The notes under the pieces are model-generated. The model was given only the letters and a program-made list of their open reading frames with translations, did no database searches and had not been told where the DNA came from. A DNA stretch of 24,648 nt, taken from positions 1-24,648 of IMG/VR virus record IMGVR_UViG_2684622670_000019; one strand, given 5' to 3'. Below, in pieces: positions 1,088 to 9,054 of the stretch. A program made the position numbers and the translations under genes. Position 1 is the stretch's first letter. Every line of letters starts with the position of its first letter. Origin of the DNA: a virus. Lineage: Duplodnaviria > Heunggongvirae > Uroviricota > Caudoviricetes.

Positions 1088-1450
1088 ATGTTAAAGCTAT
1101 TTGCAAAGTACACCTCGATTGGTGTGCTAAACACACTTATACACTGGGTGGTTTTTGGTGTTTGTATCTATGCAGCGCATACAAATCAGGCTCTGGCAAA
1201 CTTCGCAGGTTTCGTTGTGGCAGTGAGCTTTAGCTTCTTCGCGAATGCAAAATTCACATTCAAAGCATCGGCTACAACGATGCGCTACATGTTATACGTC
1301 ACGTTCATGGGAGCGCTTAGCGCTGCTGTTGGATGGGCTGCTGATAGATGCGCACTTCCCCCAATCATTACTCTTATTACCTCCTCCGCCATCAGCCTGG
1401 TGTGCGGTTTCGTCTATTCAAGGTTAATTGTCTTTAGGGGTGCGAAATGA
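1088..1450 (+). CDS. gtrA: GtrA, bactoprenol-linked glucose translocase (flippase), O-antigen conversion
   Basis: 120-aa small multi-TM protein ([24 protein letters not shown]...) matching GtrA of Shigella/Salmonella serotype-converting phages from memory; first gene of a three-gene operon with ATGA overlap to gtrB. Confidence 0.85.
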
Positions 1451-2370
1451 AGATATCTCTTGTAGTTCCTGTCTTCAATGAAGAAGAGGCGATACCAATT
1501 TTTTATAAAACGGTACGTGAATTCGAAGAGTTGAAGCCATATGAAGTAGAAATTGTTTTTATAAATGATGGTAGCAAAGACGCTACTGAGTCAATTATTA
1601 ATGCTCTGGCTGTTTCAGATCCTCTAGTTATTCCTTTGTCATTTACTCGCAACTTTGGTAAAGAACCAGCATTGTTTGCAGGGTTAGACCATGCTACTGG
1701 AGATGCCGTGATTCCAATTGATGTTGACCTGCAAGACCCGATTGAGGTTATTCCTCATCTTATTGAAAACTGGCAGGCTGGCGCCGATATGGTGCTGGCA
1801 AAGCGTTCAGACCGCTCTACAGATGGGCGTCTGAAGCGCAAGACAGCAGAGTGGTTTTATAAGCTTCACAATAAGATCAGCAATCCGAAGCTCGAGGAAA
1901 ATGTTGGCGATTTCCGGCTGATGTCCCGCGATGTAGTGGATAATATTAAGCTTATGCCAGAACGCAATCTTTTCATGAAAGGCATTCTTAGTTGGGTTGG
2001 TGGGTCTACAGATGTAGTTGAGTATGTCCGTGCTGAGCGGATAGCCGGCAGCACGAAATTCAATGGGTGGAAATTATGGAACCTCGCACTTGAAGGTATA
2101 ACAAGTTTCTCCACTTTCCCTCTGCGTATGTGGACTTATATTGGGCTATTCGTAGCTGGAATGGCTCTTTTATATGGCACATGGATGATTATCGACACCT
2201 TGGTGTTTGGAAATCCGGTTCGCGGTTACCCATCACTTATGGTGTCCATTCTCTTCTTAGGCGGAATTCAGCTTATAGGAATTGGCGTACTTGGTGAATA
2301 TATAGGAAGAATTTACATAGAGTGCAAAGCTAGACCTAGATTTATTATCAAGAGAATGAAAAATGAATAA
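1447..2370 (+). CDS. gtrB: GtrB, bactoprenol glucosyltransferase (GT2 family)
   Basis: 307 aa; N-terminal GT2 signature ([10 protein letters not shown]...INDGSKD...IDVDLQDP) and C-terminal TM helices; translationally coupled to gtrA and gtrC. Confidence 0.88.
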
Positions 2371-3793
2371 AACAATCAAAATCAACTTCTACATACTATT
2401 TATTATTTTGTTTTTTATTATAACATGTAATATTTACTACTATGATGATGTATTTAGATCGTATTGGGGATATTATGGTTGGTCTGAAGATGGAAGGCCT
2501 TTTGCAGATTTATTCTATAAATTATTTATTTTCTTTAGATCTGAAAGCATACCAGATATTTACCCGCTACCACTAATTTTAACGTCTGTGCTTCTTGTTA
2601 TATCACTAACAAATGCATTGCAAAATATACTATCAAAAGATGGGGTTATAGTTAATATAACTTTTGCAATATTTATGCTTAACCCTTTTCTTTTGTCTAA
2701 TATGCTATTTAGATATGATGGTGCATTTATGATTTTATCTATTGCACTTTCGGCTATTCCGTTCATTTTTACAAAAAGTAGAACATTCGCCATATCATCA
2801 CTACTGTGCCTAACAATATCGCTTGGATTGTATCAAGCCTCAATAAATGTGTACATTGGGCTTGCATCAGTAGTGGTTGCAATGGAAGCATTGAAAGGGG
2901 AAAAGTTTACATCAATAGCCAGCAGAGTGCTATTATCTGTTACATGCGTAGTCTCTTCATATGTTATATACTCAAAATTAATACTTGAATCATTATCTTT
3001 AAATAATAACTTCTCGAAATATGCTCAAATAGTTGAATTAAATAAAGGAGGAGTCATCAATGTTTATGAGAATATAATTAACGCAGTTAAAAAAATTGAT
3101 GTTGCTCTTCATAGTGGTATTGGAACACCTCTTTATATATTTTTATCAATAATAGCCATATCATCTGTGTGTGTTGCCATTAAACGAAAACAATTTCAGT
3201 TACTATTTTTTATTGCTATATCTATTTTGGGTTGTTTCTTTTCTTCTTTTGGTGTGTCTGTCTTTGGGAAATCGCCAGTATTTGTGTCAAGGATATTTAT
3301 CGGATTTGGTGTTTTTATAATGGCAGTTCCTTTGATTGGCTCAGCACTTCTTAATTGGAAACTTAATTACTTACTATCATTATTCATTGCAATTCCTATG
3401 CTGTCCATCTTTTTTGCCACCATTAATGCCTCAAGAGAGGAATTTAAATTCCAAAACAATTTATCACTTCAAATGATTAATGATATTAATCATAGCAAAG
3501 CTAAATATCTCGACTTTGTTGTTATTGATGGCTATGCGAAGAACTCTTCTGTTGCAAGCATAAATAAGAAAATATTTCCCGTAATATCTGATATATTGCC
3601 TCCTGTCTTTACAAATAGATATGATGGTGGGGTTTTCACATTGATGAGAAATGGACTAAAAGATGTTGTTAGTGCTGAGTCATCAGCTGCAGACAACGCG
3701 GTATCAATATCAGATGATGGAAATCTAATTTCTGACAATAATATATATAGCATTCATGCGACCAAAGATATTATTGTAATAAAATTAAAATAA
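2363..3793 (+). CDS. gtrC: GtrC-type serotype-specific O-antigen glucosyltransferase (polytopic membrane protein)
   Basis: 476 aa, many TM segments, extremely AT-rich; third position of the gtr operon, overlapping the gtrB stop by 8 nt. Family members are highly divergent, so the call is by position and topology. Confidence 0.7.
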
Positions 3794-3798
3794 CCCCT

Positions 3799-3835
3799 CC
3801 CCCTCCCGCATCAACTCCAGTAATGGCGGGAGGGG
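3799..3835. terminator. Stem-loop between convergent gtrC and tailspike; likely terminator for the tailspike transcript
   Basis: 10-bp perfect GC-rich stem cccctcccgc (3800-3809) / gcgggagggg (3826-3835); the flanking A-rich tract 3781-3793 gives a U-run after the stem on the minus strand. Confidence 0.55.
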
Positions 3836-3857
3836 ATCTACAAAAAATCAAATATCA

Positions 3858-5921
3858 CTAAGAAAAAATCCAATTACCATACATTCCAGTTATTTCACTA
3901 TACATGCCTTCTTTATTTTTTAATTTAATCCAAGCGCCGAATTCAGTGGTGGCTACTTGCGTTACTTCTGAAGAGTTACTTACAAACCTTATATTTGCTA
4001 CACCTATTGCTCTACTTGGTGATGAGATTGTCATAGCTCTTATTATTTTTAACTCTCTGAAATCACCAGTGCTACTTGCGATTATATCAATATCATTAGT
4101 GCTATGGTTAAATATAATGGTGTTATTTAACAGCTTTGTATTTTGAAAAGATGTTATTGTGGCAATCCCTCCAATAAATCCTCTTATCTGGGCCGGGCCA
4201 GTATCTCCACTATCATAGGCTAATGATGTGGTTATATTATCTTCCTCCTTTCCTATATGTATATCAATAAAGTACTCTTTTAAACTAATACCAGCCAAAA
4301 CTAAAAATGTTGATATAGTCGATGTACATTTTTTAATAACCAGATTCTTAAAATTTCGAGATAACCCGATGCTTATTGGATCAATAGTTCTAGGTAATAA
4401 TCTGATTATTTTATCCCCACCTGCTATAGTAGTTTCATCAACAATTTCACCTATTTCCACAAAAAGGCGGTCATCCCCCAGCATTTCAAAAACACAAAAG
4501 TCTAAAGGAGACGTCTTAAATACCACTCTATCAATTAAGATTTTCCCTATACCATTTCCCATAACTCTAGTAGCTGTCACCCCTCTGTTAGTCACATTCG
4601 TTAGTGTTGTATTCCCCGAGATGATTACATCAGCTACAAGACTGTCAGGGAAAATATTAAGTTCCACACCAGTATACGCACCATTGATGTATGGGTTTGA
4701 GATTTCACAATTAATCAACCGAGGGACAGTGTGTCCAGGCACACTTTCGTCTGCCTCTGGTTCAATATCTATGCCAGATTTCGGCATAGCACCTGTAACA
4801 CCTCCGTAGTCACCAATATTATAAATCTCAGGATTAACTATTATTATATTTTCACCTGACGTTAGGCTTATACCGTTACGCCTGCATTGTTTGACGATCG
4901 GTTTTTCTATATAGATATTTTCTGGAACCGTGCCATCGGTAGTCCCCCACTTCATGCCTATATATATTCCGTCGCCAAACATGTTGGTATACAGTCCACC
5001 AATAATACGAATGTTAGAGGATTGAAGTATTGTAAGCCCCCATCCATGTTCTCCTTCGGATGTGTTTGTTAACCGATCACCTTCCAGTACAGGATTATAA
5101 ATATTTACATTTTTAACACCGTTTGCTATGTAAATGATATGGCTTTGTGGCCTGTTTTGATTTGCTAGTTTTAATGCCCCATCCTTCTCAAATCTTATAG
5201 TGCTATTATCTACGCATCTTAACACAGATTTAAAAGCATCATTTCCAGGGGAAAAAGGGTCTTCATTCACAGCCATCAAGCCTTCAAATGATTTATCTAT
5301 AATGAATTCTGCACCAATAGATGCTGCGGATTCATACGCTTTTTGTAGTGTTTGTGCGTCATTGCAAAAATCAGAAGCATAAATAGAGTTGGTTTTCTTT
5401 AATTCAAATATCCTACCATTTCTGCTCCTGATAATTAATATTCCATCTGGGGTGAGCGTGGGGGTGGATGATTCATAAACATATCGACCATGAATCATTA
5501 CATGATTAAATATATCTGGGACATCCTCTTGCTCTATATTAATAGCAACATATATAAGTTTATTACTTAACTCCCCCCTTAACTGATCAGGATCATACTT
5601 CAGCACATTAGGAAAATAGAACTGCTGCGCACCATACGCATCATATACAGCCATAGAATGGCCTTGCACAGTTACGAATTTAGCAATCTGTCCGTTATAT
5701 ACCGGATATCCAGCAGCGTTAATGATTATTGGTTGCGAAACAGGAACGTGAGAACCGTCTTCATTCTCCACATAAACCTGAATCTGGTTTTCAGGATTTA
5801 CTGGATCAGTGTCAATTTTACCGATATAAATTTTGCCATTGGCAACCGCTTTAAAAGAACGCGCCATAGTGAATAGTTGCGAAGGCATACTCACTACAAC
5901 ATTGGCTGTAATATCTGTCAT
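3858..5921 (-). CDS. Tailspike protein: P22-type N-terminal head-binding domain fused to a beta-helix receptor-binding (depolymerase) domain
   Basis: 687 aa; N-terminal ~110 aa ([11 protein letters not shown]...[32 protein letters not shown]...VLKYDPDQ) closely matches the P22/Sf6/HK620 tailspike head-binding domain from memory; the remainder is a repetitive beta-helix-like sequence. SD GGAG upstream of ATG 5921. Confidence 0.85.
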
Positions 5922-6053: not shown

Positions 6054-6311
6054 ATGATGTACAGCAAATACGATGAGGCGCAGTTCCACTTGAGGCTTAC
6101 GCACGAGTTGCACGCTAAGATTAAGCAGCGTGCAAAAATGAATAACAGGTCTATCAATTCCGAAATTGTGGCTACGATGGAAGAATCTCTCTCCAAACCA
6201 TCACCTGTAAGCGGGTATCGTGATGAAGAAGAGAGACTGGCCTCATTAATCTCGGAACGAGTAAAAGAAGTTGCGGCTGAAATTCTAAGGAAAGAAAAAA
6301 CCCGCGATTAA
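6054..6311 (+). CDS. Mnt-like ribbon-helix-helix repressor
   Basis: 85 aa from ATG 6054 (MMYSKYDEAQFHLRLTHELHAKIKQRAKMNNRSINSEIVATMEESLSKPSPVSGYRDEEERLA...) aligns with P22 Mnt (..FNFRMPMEVREKLKFRAEANGRSMNSELLQIVQDALSKPSPVTGYRNDAERLA..). The longer ORF-track start at 5877 is rejected. Confidence 0.75.
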   Translation: MMYSKYDEAQFHLRLTHELHAKIKQRAKMNNRSINSEIVATMEESLSKPSPVSGYRDEEERLASLISERVKEVAAEILRKEKTRD

Positions 6312-6326
6312 GCGGGTTTAGTTTTC
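6295..6326. terminator. Bidirectional intrinsic terminator between convergent mnt-like and KilAC antirepressor genes
   Basis: 7-bp stem aacccgc (6299-6305) / gcgggtt (6312-6318), flanked by AAAAAA (6295-6300) and TAGTTTT (6320-6325). Confidence 0.5.
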
Positions 6327-6337
6327 ATTATAAAATG

Positions 6338-7063
6338 TTACGCCACATTTGAGCCATGTAGCAGGTGTTGTAGTGCTTTAACGCCTTCAGAATTGTAGCG
6401 GAACGCCTCTACCTGTTTGCTGGAATGCGCCGATTTATCCAGGAAGAACTTCCCGTACTGCTCAGTTTTGAGGTTGTTTGCGTTAGCAATGCGACCAATC
6501 TTGTTGGCCGTTACTCCAAGCTGCTCTGCAACCTCCCCTGCTGAGTAGTAATGCTCTTCTATTGCCGGAAGAGGTATTGCATTAAAACCAACAAGCGGGT
6601 TGATTATACTTGCTGCCGCTGTCTGCTTTGCCTCCGGCGCAAGATTTGGCATCAGATCGAACAGATTGGTAACAGCTTCAACCGTCATTTTCAGTGTTCG
6701 CGCTTGACGATACTCAATAAGTCCACTCGCTGATTTACCGCTTTTAATGTGTGCTTCCTGCATACTTTCAAGTTTGTCTACAAGTGTTCGGCGAACTGCT
6801 TTAGATTCGCGAGCAGCAACACGAAGCGCCTGCTTGATAGTCATGGAGATAACATCAATGTCAGCCCCGTTTTTCCGACCTACACTTTTTGTGTAGGTCT
6901 CGCCCTCCAATTCATCCTCAATTTTCTCGATGAATTTGTTGTTACGTACTGATGGCTCTCCACATAACTTGCGAGCTTCATTAACCATCATCAGAAGGCT
7001 TTGGCTGTCAATGGTTTTATCCGTGACAACGGATCCGATGTTTGCTACATTCTTCAAAGTCAT
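6338..7063 (-). CDS. Antirepressor-like protein with C-terminal KilAC/ANT-type domain
   Basis: 242 aa from ATG 7063 with SD AAGGA 7 nt upstream; C-terminal region (YSAGEVAEQLGVTANKIGRIANANNL...) resembles the phage antirepressor KilAC domain; sits in the ant position of a P22 immI-like operon. Confidence 0.6.
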   Translation of the reverse strand: MTLKNVANIGSVVTDKTIDSQSLLMMVNEARKLCGEPSVRNNKFIEKIEDELEGETYTKSVGRKNGADIDVISMTIKQALRVAARESKAVRRTLVDKLESMQEAHIKSGKSASGLIEYRQARTLKMTVEAVTNLFDLMPNLAPEAKQTAAASIINPLVGFNAIPLPAIEEHYYSAGEVAEQLGVTANKIGRIANANNLKTEQYGKFFLDKSAHSSKQVEAFRYNSEGVKALQHLLHGSNVA

Positions 7064-7100
7064 TAGGCATTCCTTATGTGGTAGTAAGGGTGTGACATAG

Positions 7101-7132
7101 GCCGCCAGCAGCACACTGGCGGTTTTCTTTTT
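7101..7132 (+). terminator. Intrinsic terminator in antisense orientation between the two antirepressor genes
   Basis: Stem ccgccag (7102-7108) / ctggcgg (7116-7122), 7-nt loop, then TTTTCTTTTT (7123-7132) on the plus strand although both flanking genes are on the minus strand. Confidence 0.55.
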
Positions 7133-7151
7133 GCGCCGTCCGGCGCACCAA

Positions 7152-7778
7152 TCAATGAATCCATTCCTCGCCGCGCAGTTTTGTCAGCATTGGCTGAGCG
7201 TTCTTTACGACAAAATTGTTGGTATCAAGATTCTTCATTTCACGAAGAAGTGATTTCTTGGTTTCTTCTGACATATAGCGAGTCTCATATGCAATATCGT
7301 AAATTCTTCCTGAAAGCTCAGAACCAATTTGCTTCATTCCTGGGTAGATGTGTTTGCACATTTGTTGACTCTTCTCCATCCACAATTGTAAGTAGCAGAG
7401 ATTAACCAGTTCTTCGTCAGTAAACTGTTTTGCAATCGGTGAGCATTCTGCCTGCCGATCCAAAATATCCAGCACCCAGCGGCGGAACTCTTTTGCTACA
7501 GGAGTGCGAGCAAACATCGCGATTAGGTGGGCACCGCGTAGTGAGAAAACTCGCACTTTTTTGCGATAATTTCCTGAGGTACTCACTTCGAGTACCTGAG
7601 TCATTCCGGCGCTAAACTCATCGCCATACTTGTTATAAATCATTGTTACTGCACGACTATTTGCGTATTTAAGTGCAGATGCAATATTAGATGATGTAAA
7701 CCAAACACCATGCATATCACGGGTGGGCACCAACTCAACTCCGTGGAAGTTGTAATCTGATTTTGCTACAATATTCAT
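7152..7778 (-). CDS. Antirepressor-like protein with N-terminal Bro-N/AntA-type domain
   Basis: About 208 aa from ATG 7778 with SD AAGGAA upstream; N-terminal half (NFHGVELVPTRDMHGVWFTSSNIASALKY...LIAMFARTPVAKEFRRWVLDIL) fits the Bro-N/AntA fold pattern; immediately downstream of the Arc-like gene. The TTG start at 7883 from the ORF track is rejected. Confidence 0.6.
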   Translation of the reverse strand: MNIVAKSDYNFHGVELVPTRDMHGVWFTSSNIASALKYANSRAVTMIYNKYGDEFSAGMTQVLEVSTSGNYRKKVRVFSLRGAHLIAMFARTPVAKEFRRWVLDILDRQAECSPIAKQFTDEELVNLCYLQLWMEKSQQMCKHIYPGMKQIGSELSGRIYDIAYETRYMSEETKKSLLREMKNLDTNNFVVKNAQPMLTKLRGEEWIH

Positions 7779-7851
7779 GTTAGTTTCCTTGCATACGGTT
7801 ACTGACATAGAGGCCCGGTTTGTGTTCGCGCACTGCCGGGCTTCGCTATTT

Positions 7852-8025
7852 TTATTGGATGACAACATCGCCCTTTGCCTCAAGTTTCATCAATAACTCC
7901 ATTCGATAAGCTATCTCTGCCTGAATTGACCTATGGCATCTTTTTGCTGATTCGCGGATATGTGAATCAACCTTTTCTGTAAAACGAACCTGACGCGGCT
8001 TGATGGAAGATATCTTTTCAGTCAT
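7852..8025 (-). CDS. Arc-like ribbon-helix-helix repressor (57 aa, below the ORF-track cutoff)
   Basis: MTEKISSIKPRQVRFTEKVDSHIRESAKRCHRSIQAEIAYRMELLMKLEAKGDVVIQ aligns with P22 Arc (PQFNLRWPREVLDLVRKVAEENGRSVNSEIYQRVMESFKKEGRIGA); SD AGGAG 7 nt upstream of ATG 8025; first gene of the minus-strand operon. Confidence 0.7.
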   Translation of the reverse strand: MTEKISSIKPRQVRFTEKVDSHIRESAKRCHRSIQAEIAYRMELLMKLEAKGDVVIQ

Positions 8026-8074
8026 TATGCACTCCTGTTTTTGAAAAACTCATAATCTCACTTTTTGTAGTTTG

Positions 8075-8103
8075 ATTATTCACTCACACTCAGTATGAGT
8101 CAA
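8075..8103 (-). promoter_or_regulatory. Sigma70-type promoter for the arc-ant operon (Pant analogue) with embedded candidate operator
   Basis: On the minus strand TTGACT (8103-8098), 17-nt spacer, AATAAT (8080-8075); the spacer contains the inverted repeat ACTCA-gta-TGAGT (8088-8100) and a further ACTCA copy at 8082-8086. Confidence 0.5.
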
Positions 8104-8124: not shown

Positions 8125-8766
8125 ATGAATTTTGACGATCAATTCCCATCAAGAGTATCTCTGGCAAGACAGTCCAGGGGTATGACGCAGGCGCAGTTGT
8201 CAAAATTAGCTGGTGTTGTTCAACGTCAAATAGCTGCATACGAGGGTGGTGAGGCTAAACCACGGCTTCGTGTATTGCAGGCATTAGCCAACGCATTAGG
8301 TACTACGGCTGAGTGGTTAGCTCTGGGTGAAGGTCAGGGTCCGGGAACAAAAAACGTCATGCCTGACGTTCTGGTAAAGCAAATACCAATCCTCAAACTA
8401 GATGAAGTTATGCATTACCTAAACACAGGTGAACATTCATCGTCTAGATTTCATCCGGCAATATACAATGTTGGTGACTCTGCATTTGCATTGACTATTG
8501 AAGGTGAAGCTATGACTACAAGTTCAGGCATTAGCTTTCCCAGAGGATCAGTTGTCACGTTCAGCCCTCTAGTAAAAGCTAAAAGCAAAGATTATGTAAT
8601 AGCATCATTGGATAAAGAGCAAATATTGAGCTTCAAACAGGTTTACATTGGTGAAATAGAGACAAACCTAGTATCCCTAAACCCAATGTATCCTAATATT
8701 CTTGTTAGAAATGAAGATGTTAGTATTTTGGCAACCGCAGTTTACCTTGAAATCCCGTTGCTTTGA
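8125..8766 (+). CDS. Lambda-CI-fold repressor (N-terminal XRE HTH, C-terminal S24 LexA-like domain) with catalytic Ser replaced by Ala; predicted non-cleavable
   Basis: 213 aa; HTH (MTQAQLSKLAGVVQRQIAAYEGGEAKP); C-terminal domain aligns with the lambda CI C-terminal domain (VGDSAFALTIEGEAM versus ASDSAFWLEVEGNSM; SFKQV versus TFKKL; LNPMYP versus LNPQYP). Divergent from the arc-like operon, in the P22 mnt position. Confidence 0.75.
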   Translation: MNFDDQFPSRVSLARQSRGMTQAQLSKLAGVVQRQIAAYEGGEAKPRLRVLQALANALGTTAEWLALGEGQGPGTKNVMPDVLVKQIPILKLDEVMHYLNTGEHSSSRFHPAIYNVGDSAFALTIEGEAMTTSSGISFPRGSVVTFSPLVKAKSKDYVIASLDKEQILSFKQVYIGEIETNLVSLNPMYPNILVRNEDVSILATAVYLEIPLL

Positions 8767-8826: not shown

Positions 8827-9054
8827 GTGAAGCGATGGTTCCTCATAATTACTGTTTTCGCGATCATTTACACTATTTTCCCTGCATTAAAAGCACCAAT
8901 GCAAATAATTTCACTAGCAATAATTGCGATTGGTGCTTTCATTGCAGTAGCCGTACTTGTGTTTAAGGTTTTAAAGTTTTTAGTTTGGCTATCAAAAGAT
9001 GATGGATGCAAAGTTCATCAAGAAAAAGAAGGCAAAATAACCAAAGTTGACTAA
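8827..9054 (+). CDS. Small two-TM membrane protein; candidate superinfection-exclusion or abortive-infection effector
   Basis: 75 aa; strong SD TAAGGAGG 5 nt upstream of GTG 8827; two hydrophobic helices (FLIITVFAIIYTIF, IISLAIIAIGAFIAVAVLVF) and a charged C-terminus; AT-rich; directly downstream of and co-oriented with the CI-like repressor; no recognisable homologue. Confidence 0.55.
   Translation: MKRWFLIITVFAIIYTIFPALKAPMQIISLAIIAIGAFIAVAVLVFKVLKFLVWLSKDDGCKVHQEKEGKITKVD

Follow-up and report, generated by a model that had tools for sequence, protein, structure and literature searches.

In phage P22, the antirepressor Ant of the immunity I (immI) region binds and inactivates the c2 repressor, while Arc shuts off the promoter Pant and Mnt holds this promoter off in the lysogen (PMC2629481, PMC12111858). 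Translation of ant is blocked by the antisense RNA sar, and late transcription runs through the moron on its way to the tailspike gene (PMC2629481, PMC12111858). The variability of this "ant moron" has already been documented (PMC2629481). In phage P1, Ant inactivates the C1 repressor and is under antisense-RNA control (PMC8201110). Herein we describe a locus in a viral DNA of 24,648 nucleotides (nt) (IMG/VR record IMGVR_UViG_2684622670_000019; hereafter "the window," with positions counted from its first nucleotide) in which two tandem antirepressor-family genes, ant1 (gene 1) and ant2 (gene 2), occupy the position of P22 immunity I. We consider it likely that this region is an "ant moron" of the P22-like immI type that carries two complete antirepressor-family genes of different ancestry, each under sar-type control.

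Two Antirepressor-Family Genes in a P22-Type Slot

Both open reading frames (ORFs) are present on the minus strand where an initial annotation of the DNA had placed them. Gene 1 (7778-7152) encodes a protein of 208 amino acids (aa) and gene 2 (7063-6338) a protein of 241 aa. Each has its own Shine-Dalgarno (SD) sequence, AAGGAA, about 7 nt 5′ of the ATG, and the spacer between them (7064-7151) measures exactly 88 nt; these details of the annotation also held. The spacer includes the SD of gene 2 as well as the body and terminator of a predicted antisense RNA that is discussed below. The pair lies between a gene 16 homolog and the tailspike gene, which is the slot of immunity I in P22. Judged by its sequence, the source of the region is a P22-like (Lederbergvirus) phage or prophage. 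Among sequenced phages, Escherichia phage JEP4 is the closest over this region, with 97.5% identity.

The gene 1 protein matches two Pfam families above their gathering cut-offs. Bro-N (PF02498) covers residues 23-105 (40.6 bits, E = 4e-10; cut-off 25.6), and P22_AR_C (PF10548) covers residues 117-184 (53.1 bits, E = 3.6e-14; cut-off 22.4). The protein also matches PHROG 245, named "anti-repressor Ant" (E = 3e-53), and its C-terminal region is 29% identical to that of P22 Ant (E = 1e-9). Because both domains score above their cut-offs and the C-terminal region resembles that of P22 Ant, gene 1 codes for a complete two-domain protein of the Ant type. Thus, the proposal that gene 1 is of the Bro-N type is right for its N-terminal half, but the protein is not a bare Bro-N domain because it carries P22_AR_C as well.

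Gene 2 had been proposed to be of the KilAC type, and this assignment fails. No match to ANT/KilAC (PF03374) was found in gene 2 even at E ≤ 10, whereas the positive control, P1 Ant1, scores 106.4 bits for this domain at residues 231-333. Of the two families that the initial annotation named for a Pfam search, therefore, Bro-N is found in gene 1 but ANT has no match in gene 2. The sole Pfam match for gene 2 at E ≤ 10 is HTH_31, which is meaningless, and an NCBIfam search returned no match for either gene. Residues 14-105 of gene 2 instead align with residues 112-203 of P1 Ant1, with 66 of 92 positions identical (72%, E = 4e-44). The C-terminal halves of these two proteins do not align, and the ANT region of P1 Ant1 falls outside the match. 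Gene 2 is also matched by PHROG 1726, named "anti-repressor" (E = 2e-100), and has 1940 homologs (best E = 1e-146). These homologs and the Pfam matches of gene 1 identify both ORFs as genuine genes. The protein can be described as an N-terminal domain corresponding to the P1 Ant1/Ant2 core, joined to a winged-helix C-terminal domain for which Pfam has no model.

This C-terminal domain (approximately residues 125-241) defines an extensive separate family, for which 653 representative clusters were found at E ≤ 1e-3. Among 117 relatives, the domain is fused to N-terminal domains that include Bro-N (38), Phage_pRha (27), KilA-N (14), ORF6N (13), AntA (9), and P22_AR_N (6), and weak HTH_17 matches occur in nine. 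PF03374 is not among the families listed for these relatives (the best 25 of 36), such that at most one member could match it, at E > 0.005. An AlphaFold model of gene 2 is of moderate quality (predicted local distance difference test score 71.5, predicted template modeling score 0.36) and has two domains. When this model was compared with viral protein models by using Foldseek, full-length matches carried the names antirepressor, KilAC, KilA, or Rha. Because the model is only of moderate quality, its interdomain geometry and the full-length Foldseek alignments, whose root-mean-square deviations are high, are unreliable. The C-terminal domain may be related to KilAC at the level of the fold, given these models. 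It fills the role that KilAC has elsewhere, yet it is not a member of KilAC by Pfam. We conclude that gene 2, like gene 1, encodes a two-domain protein of the shuffled antirepressor/Bro/KilA/Rha superfamily.

The Two Genes Are Separable and Recur in a Cassette

A direct comparison of the gene 1 and gene 2 proteins revealed no similarity. Moreover, each gene is found without the other. Salmonella phages of the SPN3UB type have only positions 7101-7780 of the window in common, which include gene 1 and not gene 2. Klebsiella phage phiKp_30 has only positions 6114-7173 in common, which include gene 2 and the spacer and not gene 1. In Escherichia coli A41, gene 2 is paired with an Ant composed of P22_AR_N and P22_AR_C in place of gene 1. 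The initial annotation had favored a single antirepressor whose function is split between two adjacent genes. We reject this reading because both proteins have two domains, because SPN3UB carries gene 1 alone and phiKp_30 gene 2 alone, and because A41 has a different Ant. Its fallback, namely that the genes encode two independent antirepressors, is favored insofar as two complete antirepressor-family proteins are encoded in one immI-like operon.

The phiKp_30 sequence has an additional feature at the edge of the shared segment (4040-4063 of the compared region). There, the last ~22 nt of gene 1 are joined to unrelated upstream sequence, and the antisense terminator is kept. Such a junction resembles what a deletion or recombination event would leave behind on removing gene 1.

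A scan for the cassette, using one genome per species, yielded 12 loci with full-length homologs of gene 2 from Serratia, Pantoea, Citrobacter, Erwinia, Kluyvera, Proteus, Buttiauxella, and other genera. All 12 share the same order: an ORF of 52-67 aa at the position of arc, an ORF of 190-294 aa, a spacer of 61-90 nt, and the gene 2 homolog. Every position-1 protein that was scanned with Pfam (those from nine of the 12 loci and from A41) carries Bro-N or P22_AR_N, and six of these 10 proteins also include P22_AR_C. The exact tandem pair is present in 68 of 5426 complete E. coli genomes.

Shiga toxin 2a (Stx2a) phages carry a gene 2 homolog (61% identity) outside the cassette. Here too a P22_AR_C-like gene is the neighbor, but the order of the two is reversed and they lie close to the integrase gene. 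In the Stx2a phage WGPS6, for example, the P22_AR_C-like "Ant" gene follows the gene 2 homolog (2504-4188 of the compared region), and its product is 32% identical to the C-terminal half of gene 1. A sense-oriented terminator is located upstream in the Stx2a phage in place of the antisense module. A cassette of this kind is present on a contig labeled Chryseobacterium sp. (CACSKA010000002.1), where an enterobacterial-type arc-ant1-ant2 arrangement with 61% protein identity has a typical antisense module. This suggests contamination, mislabeling, or recent transfer.

A Predicted sar-Type Antisense RNA over Each Gene

In the annotation of P22, sar is transcribed against the arc-ant spacer from a promoter that lies within the opening codons of ant, and it terminates where arc ends. 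A candidate counterpart, RNA 1, covers the ribosome-binding site of gene 1 on the plus strand (7779-7853), and the plus strand of this interval aligns with the P22 arc-ant spacer. Its extended -10 element, TGcTACAAT, is located at 7764-7772 within the first codons of gene 1, and the T-run of its terminator (7849-7853) overlaps the stop codon of the arc-like gene. RNA 1 is predicted to form two stem-loops, as does the annotated P22 sar (z-scores of -5.28 and -5.26, respectively). It is conserved in 15 sequences, with three compensatory pairs in the terminator stem. The Rfam model for sar (RF00262, gathering threshold 43 bits) gives P22 a score of 97.8 bits. Because this model does not recognize RNA 1, we regard RNA 1 as a structural and positional counterpart of sar, and probably a divergent homolog, rather than as a scored member of the family.

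A second candidate, RNA 2, is predicted over gene 2. The promoter scan identified a predicted plus-strand promoter (Psar2; GTGACA-17 nt-TGcTACATT, 7023-7051) inside codons 5-14 of this gene. Transcription from Psar2 would yield a sar-like RNA of ~75 nt (7058-7132, plus strand) whose terminator comprises a stem at 7099-7125 and a U-run at 7123-7132. The predicted RNA is complementary to both the start codon and the SD sequence of gene 2.

The terminator of RNA 2 is the hairpin that the initial annotation had interpreted as a terminator between the two genes. A hairpin and terminator are indeed present in the spacer, but they point in the antisense direction and do not separate two transcription units. 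Specifically, the T-run after the hairpin exists on the plus strand only, which is antisense to the genes, whereas on the gene strand an A-run precedes the hairpin and non-T sequence follows it. In agreement with this orientation, the terminator scan scored the spacer hairpin only on the plus strand. The orientation of the T-run led us to reject a sense-strand terminator in the spacer.

The elements of RNA 2 are well conserved. Within 15 aligned sequences, the 9-bp terminator stem exhibits compensatory changes at four pairs with none broken in the core, and the T-run is on the antisense side in all 15. The same elements are found in the spacers of all 12 related loci. Psar2 is present at 13 of 13 homologous loci, with the -35 hexamer GTGACA, an exact 17-nt spacing, and a -10 region conforming to TGnTA(A/C)A(G/T)T. 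At each of the 13 loci, 12 nt separate this -10 element from the complement of the start codon. The surroundings of these motifs vary, including the sequence of the 17-nt promoter spacer and the encoded residues 3-12. For example, the Ala, Ser, and Thr codons that occur at the -10 element (GCA, TCA, and ACA) all retain the TG. The Stx2a homolog has neither the Psar2 motifs nor the Val-Thr codons at the -35 element, and therefore the protein does not dictate them.

Folding of RNA 2 from eight homologs produced two stem-loops in most cases, with z-scores of -2.8 to -5.1. In most of the eight, the anti-SD sequence is located in or beside the apical loop of the 5′ stem-loop, and the terminator follows. 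A covariance model built from RNA 2 sequences was run on 58 sources and recovered 27 sites, of which 12 are outside the training set. Every one of the 27 sites is antisense to the gene that it matches. The sites that were inspected lie at the 5′ ends of genes, including genes whose products have Rha-type or other N termini and an ORF6N gene of SPN3UB. This model finds neither P22 sar nor RNA 1.

The SPN3UB example is informative with regard to the mobility of the element. The gene after ant in this phage (2917-3036 of the compared region) encodes an ORF6N protein unrelated to gene 2, and it carries the same antisense terminator together with its own promoter, TCGACA-17-TGcTACATT, in its first codons. 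Thus, the antisense module goes with the slot and not with the protein. RNA 2 also behaves in sequence searches as a family separate from sar. An Rfam search of the 3.3-kilobase region and of 141-nt subwindows at E ≤ 10 returned no sar and only subthreshold matches at chance level. These matches were to symR (24.9 bits), NsiR4, and SgrS, and they were set aside. Both elements nonetheless exhibit, as judged from the DNA, the hallmarks of sar-type control: a promoter in the first codons of the target, complementarity to its ribosome-binding site, and a terminator in the upstream spacer.

A Proposed Explanation and Its Alternatives

We propose that the minus strand carries an operon in which a Pant-like promoter would be followed by an arc-like gene, ant1, ant2, and a bidirectional terminator. 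At its 5′ end, each ant gene would have a portable control cassette resembling that of P22 sar. In each case, a promoter within the first codons of the gene would fire backwards to produce an RNA of ~75 nt across the start codon and SD sequence, and this RNA would stop at a terminator in the upstream spacer. The spacer "terminator" would then belong to the second antisense RNA and would not halt transcription from ant1 into ant2. The cassette lies within the late operon, 5′ of the tailspike gene. Because late transcripts must cross both ant genes to reach the tailspike gene, each gene would need translational silencing, and an antisense-oriented terminator would leave the late read-through unimpeded. 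Both proteins would be antirepressors made briefly after infection or upon derepression. Antirepressor activity is expected for both on the basis of their homology to P22 Ant and P1 Ant and of their position in the operon.

Several observations weigh against this proposal. First, synthesis of the two antisense RNAs and the resulting translational block are predictions only, and RF00262 scores neither spacer in the 141-nt searches at E ≤ 10. Second, conserved Val-Thr codons coincide with part of the sequence that includes the -35 hexamer of Psar2, whose conservation could therefore stem in part from the protein. Third, the 57-aa protein encoded at the arc position is only weakly similar to ribbon-helix-helix (RHH) proteins and has no similarity to P22 Arc by BLAST. 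Fourth, the NCBI Prokaryotic Genome Annotation Pipeline (PGAP) labels gene 2 a "hypothetical protein," the antirepressor role of its family is one that we infer, and both domains of gene 2 resemble DNA-binding folds. Finally, an Ant-type neighbor is nearly always found beside gene 2, which might reflect dependence rather than independence.

This last point leads to one alternative, wherein the two proteins are interdependent, either as a heteromeric antirepressor or with one protein modulating the other, and hence travel together. An Ant-type gene adjoins the gene 2 family at all 12 full-length loci, in A41, and in JEP4, and the Stx2a phages have a P22_AR_C-like neighbor despite the reverse order. 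Furthermore, Riedel et al. reportedly found in 1993 that P1 Ant1 and Ant2 co-purify as a complex. In P1, ant1/2 is directly followed by kilA, itself a suspected antirepressor gene (PMC8201110). In contrast, the protein at position 1 varies, having Bro-N or P22_AR_N and either including or lacking P22_AR_C, and position 2 may be occupied by the gene 2 family, a Rha-type protein, or an ORF6N protein. Likewise, phiKp_30 retains gene 2 without gene 1, whereas P22 and SPN3UB have Ant without gene 2. A common regulatory context would explain the co-location without any physical interaction. We therefore consider interdependence of this kind unlikely. A related and broader formulation would treat arc-ant1-ant2 as one unit of interdependent antirepressors, acting as a heteromer or a relay, that is equipped with an uncatalogued portable family of sar2 RNAs. 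Although this would explain the presence of an Ant-type partner beside the gene 2 family in nearly every context, we hold it to be doubtful.

Another possibility is that the gene 2 protein is no antirepressor but a DNA-binding regulator, of the Rha/KilA/Bro class, whose targets are promoters of the phage or the host. The winged-helix C-terminal domain and the weak HTH_17 matches among its relatives are consistent with this function, as are the fusions of the same domain to Rha, KilA-N, and Bro-N domains. Iyer et al. are said to have predicted in 2002 that these three domains are DNA-binding modules. However, P22 Ant belongs to the same shuffled domain superfamily, and gene 2 is under predicted arc/sar-type control like that of ant. 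In addition, its N-terminal domain shares 72% identity with the core of P1 Ant, whose antirepressor function has been defined by experiment (PMC8201110). This assignment for gene 2 is thus rather improbable.

It is considerably less probable that the spacer hairpin serves as a sense terminator or attenuator and that gene 2 is transcribed separately from a promoter of its own. A stable GC-rich hairpin is present between the genes together with a second hairpin (GCGCCG..CGGCGC, 7134-7147), and hairpins can pause RNA polymerase in either orientation. However, the sense strand has the A-run before the hairpin and no T-run after it in all 15 aligned sequences, the scan scores a plus-strand terminator only, and the conserved promoter points in the antisense direction. 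The promoter scan also found no promoter-like site on the sense strand between the genes.

Least probable is the division of an ancestral Bro-N plus KilAC antirepressor into two adjacent genes that rebuild one function: gene 1 does carry Bro-N, the C-terminal domain of gene 2 is architecturally like KilAC in being C-terminal to Bro-N, KilA-N, or Rha elsewhere, and some of the full-length Foldseek matches are annotated as KilAC, but gene 1 has P22_AR_C as a C-terminal domain of its own, gene 2 has its own P1 Ant-core N-terminal domain and no PF03374 match at E ≤ 10, and the genes occur separately with a position-1 partner that varies between Bro-N and P22_AR_N.

Operon Signals and Neighboring Regulators

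A Pant-like sigma-70 promoter, TTGACT-17-AATAAT, is located at 8075-8103 on the minus strand and scored 10/12 in the promoter scan. By analogy with the position of Pant in P22, this promoter would drive arc-ant1-ant2. An inverted repeat is present nearby (8052-8062/8069-8079). Operator-like symmetry extends over 8052-8100 on the minus strand, where the inverted repeat AATAATCAAACT..AGTGAGATTAT covers the -10 element and start site, and ACTCA-TAC-TGAGT is found between the -35 and -10 elements. There are three candidate repressors for this region, namely the arc-like, mnt-like, and CI-like proteins.

The gene in the P22 arc position is a small, putative RHH gene (7852-8025, minus strand; 57 aa). 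Its product has weak Pfam matches to ParD_like (E = 8e-4) and Arc (E = 0.011), both of which are below cut-off, and it matches PHROG 10182. At the opposite end of the operon, a bidirectional intrinsic terminator (6298-6319) was predicted, in which a single hairpin, flanked by a T-run on each side, scores in either direction. This terminator is common to the ant operon and to a convergent gene on the plus strand (6054-6311) that encodes an Mnt-like Arc-domain repressor of 85 aa (Pfam Arc, E = 3e-15). The mnt-like gene is located between gene 2 and the tailspike gene and is annotated in JEP4 as "regulatory protein mnt." In both JEP4 (3418-3639 of the compared region) and E. coli A41 (2764-2985), an ORF of 73 aa without a Pfam match lies directly 3′ of gene 2, and this ORF is missing from the window at 6312-6337.

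Divergent from the arc-like gene is a gene for a CI/LexA-like repressor with HTH_3 and Peptidase_S24 domains (8125-8766, plus strand). The protein has GEAM where LexA, the immC C2 protein of JEP4, and the E. coli A41 homolog have GxSM. Thus, the catalytic serine is replaced by alanine, and the position of the catalytic lysine is retained. An SOS-cleavable CI-like repressor driving the operon is disfavored because of this substitution. Based on these residues, the protein is probably a noncleavable maintenance repressor similar to Mnt in function. A separate immC C2 is present in JEP4, which is nearly identical. An ORF of 75 aa (8827-9054, plus strand) with two predicted hydrophobic helices follows closely after the CI-like gene, in the slot that is filled by sieA in P22. 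Its product may be a small membrane or exclusion protein, judging from these helices.

The remainder of the window has the P22-type layout of structural genes, tailspike gene, and gtrABC. The gtrABC-like genes are located at 1088-3793, the tailspike gene at 5921-3858 on the minus strand, and beyond it P22-type structural genes continue on the minus strand as far as terminase.

Significance and Comparison with Known Systems

The arrangement described here is a modest elaboration of the P22 immunity I switch and will be of little surprise to a specialist in mosaic lambdoid phages. Our literature search found no description of a form with two antirepressors and two antisense RNAs, and nothing relevant on tandem or paired antirepressors or on a characterized homolog from an Stx phage. 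Across Enterobacterales, the well-known immI switch of P22 also occurs in a version with two antirepressors. If the two proteins inactivate different classes of repressor, a phage of this kind could induce a broader set of resident prophages. RNA 2 is predicted with a precise promoter, start site, and terminator and is not represented in Rfam. The antisense module, consisting of the first-codon promoter, ribosome-binding site, and upstream terminator, appears to move between unrelated coding bodies, and such mobility would be a clear case of regulatory mosaicism. Two protein domains, the P1-Ant core and the winged-helix C-terminal domain, are without a Pfam model. Existing labels also do not fit the domain results, including "hypothetical protein" from PGAP, "KilA" and "Rha" for the pair in JEP4, and the earlier assignment to KilAC.

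Relative to antirepressors in which Bro-N and KilAC form a single chain, gene 1 includes Bro-N and gene 2 has its distinct C-terminal domain in the place of KilAC. The fusion of this C-terminal domain to Bro-N in 38 of its 117 relatives parallels such single-chain proteins. Unlike them, neither gene in the window is a lone domain, and no collinear fused counterpart was seen.

The immI region of P1 and P7, in which Ant1/Ant2 is controlled by the c4 RNA and followed by kilA, resembles the window in that the core of gene 2 is homologous to the corresponding part of Ant1/Ant2 (72% identity). The c4 RNA of P1 is processed from the same transcript and is not known to be made as a convergent countertranscript. 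In both systems a second antirepressor-like gene is adjacent, and an RNA pairs at the ribosome-binding region in P1 (PMC8201110) and is predicted to do so here. In contrast to P1 Ant, which has an N-terminal extension and a true ANT/KilAC domain, gene 2 ends in a different C-terminal domain that lacks a Pfam model. KilA has been mentioned as a suspected second antirepressor of P1 (PMC8201110). In the P1 relative phi456 (2168-4166 of the compared region), kilA directly follows ant1/2, which constitutes another tandem pair from the antirepressor superfamily. KilA of P1-type phages presumably has the architecture KilA-N plus KilAC.

Both predicted antisense elements share the general characteristics of the sar family (RF00262). 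They are antisense to the ribosome-binding site of an antirepressor gene, are ~70-75 nt in length, form two stem-loops that include a Rho-independent terminator, and have a promoter inside the first codons of the target gene. Unlike members of the family, their sequences have diverged too far to be scored by its model.

The closest overall match is with P22 immI (mnt, arc, sar, ant). The two loci occupy the same genomic slot, have a small gene (a putative RHH gene here) followed by an Ant-type gene with P22_AR_C, include an Arc-domain Mnt-like gene, and have an antisense RNA (predicted here) that extends from beside the ant start codon to the end of the arc-type gene with two stem-loops. They differ in the arrangement of their regulators. 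A CI/LexA-like gene is divergent from arc here, whereas mnt is divergent in P22 with overlapping promoters, and the mnt-like gene of the window is at the other end and convergent. No similarity to Arc is detectable in the arc-like protein, and the N-terminal domain of Ant is Bro-N here in contrast to P22_AR_N in P22. The principal distinction is that, unlike in P22, ant is followed here by a second antirepressor-family gene with a second predicted antisense module.

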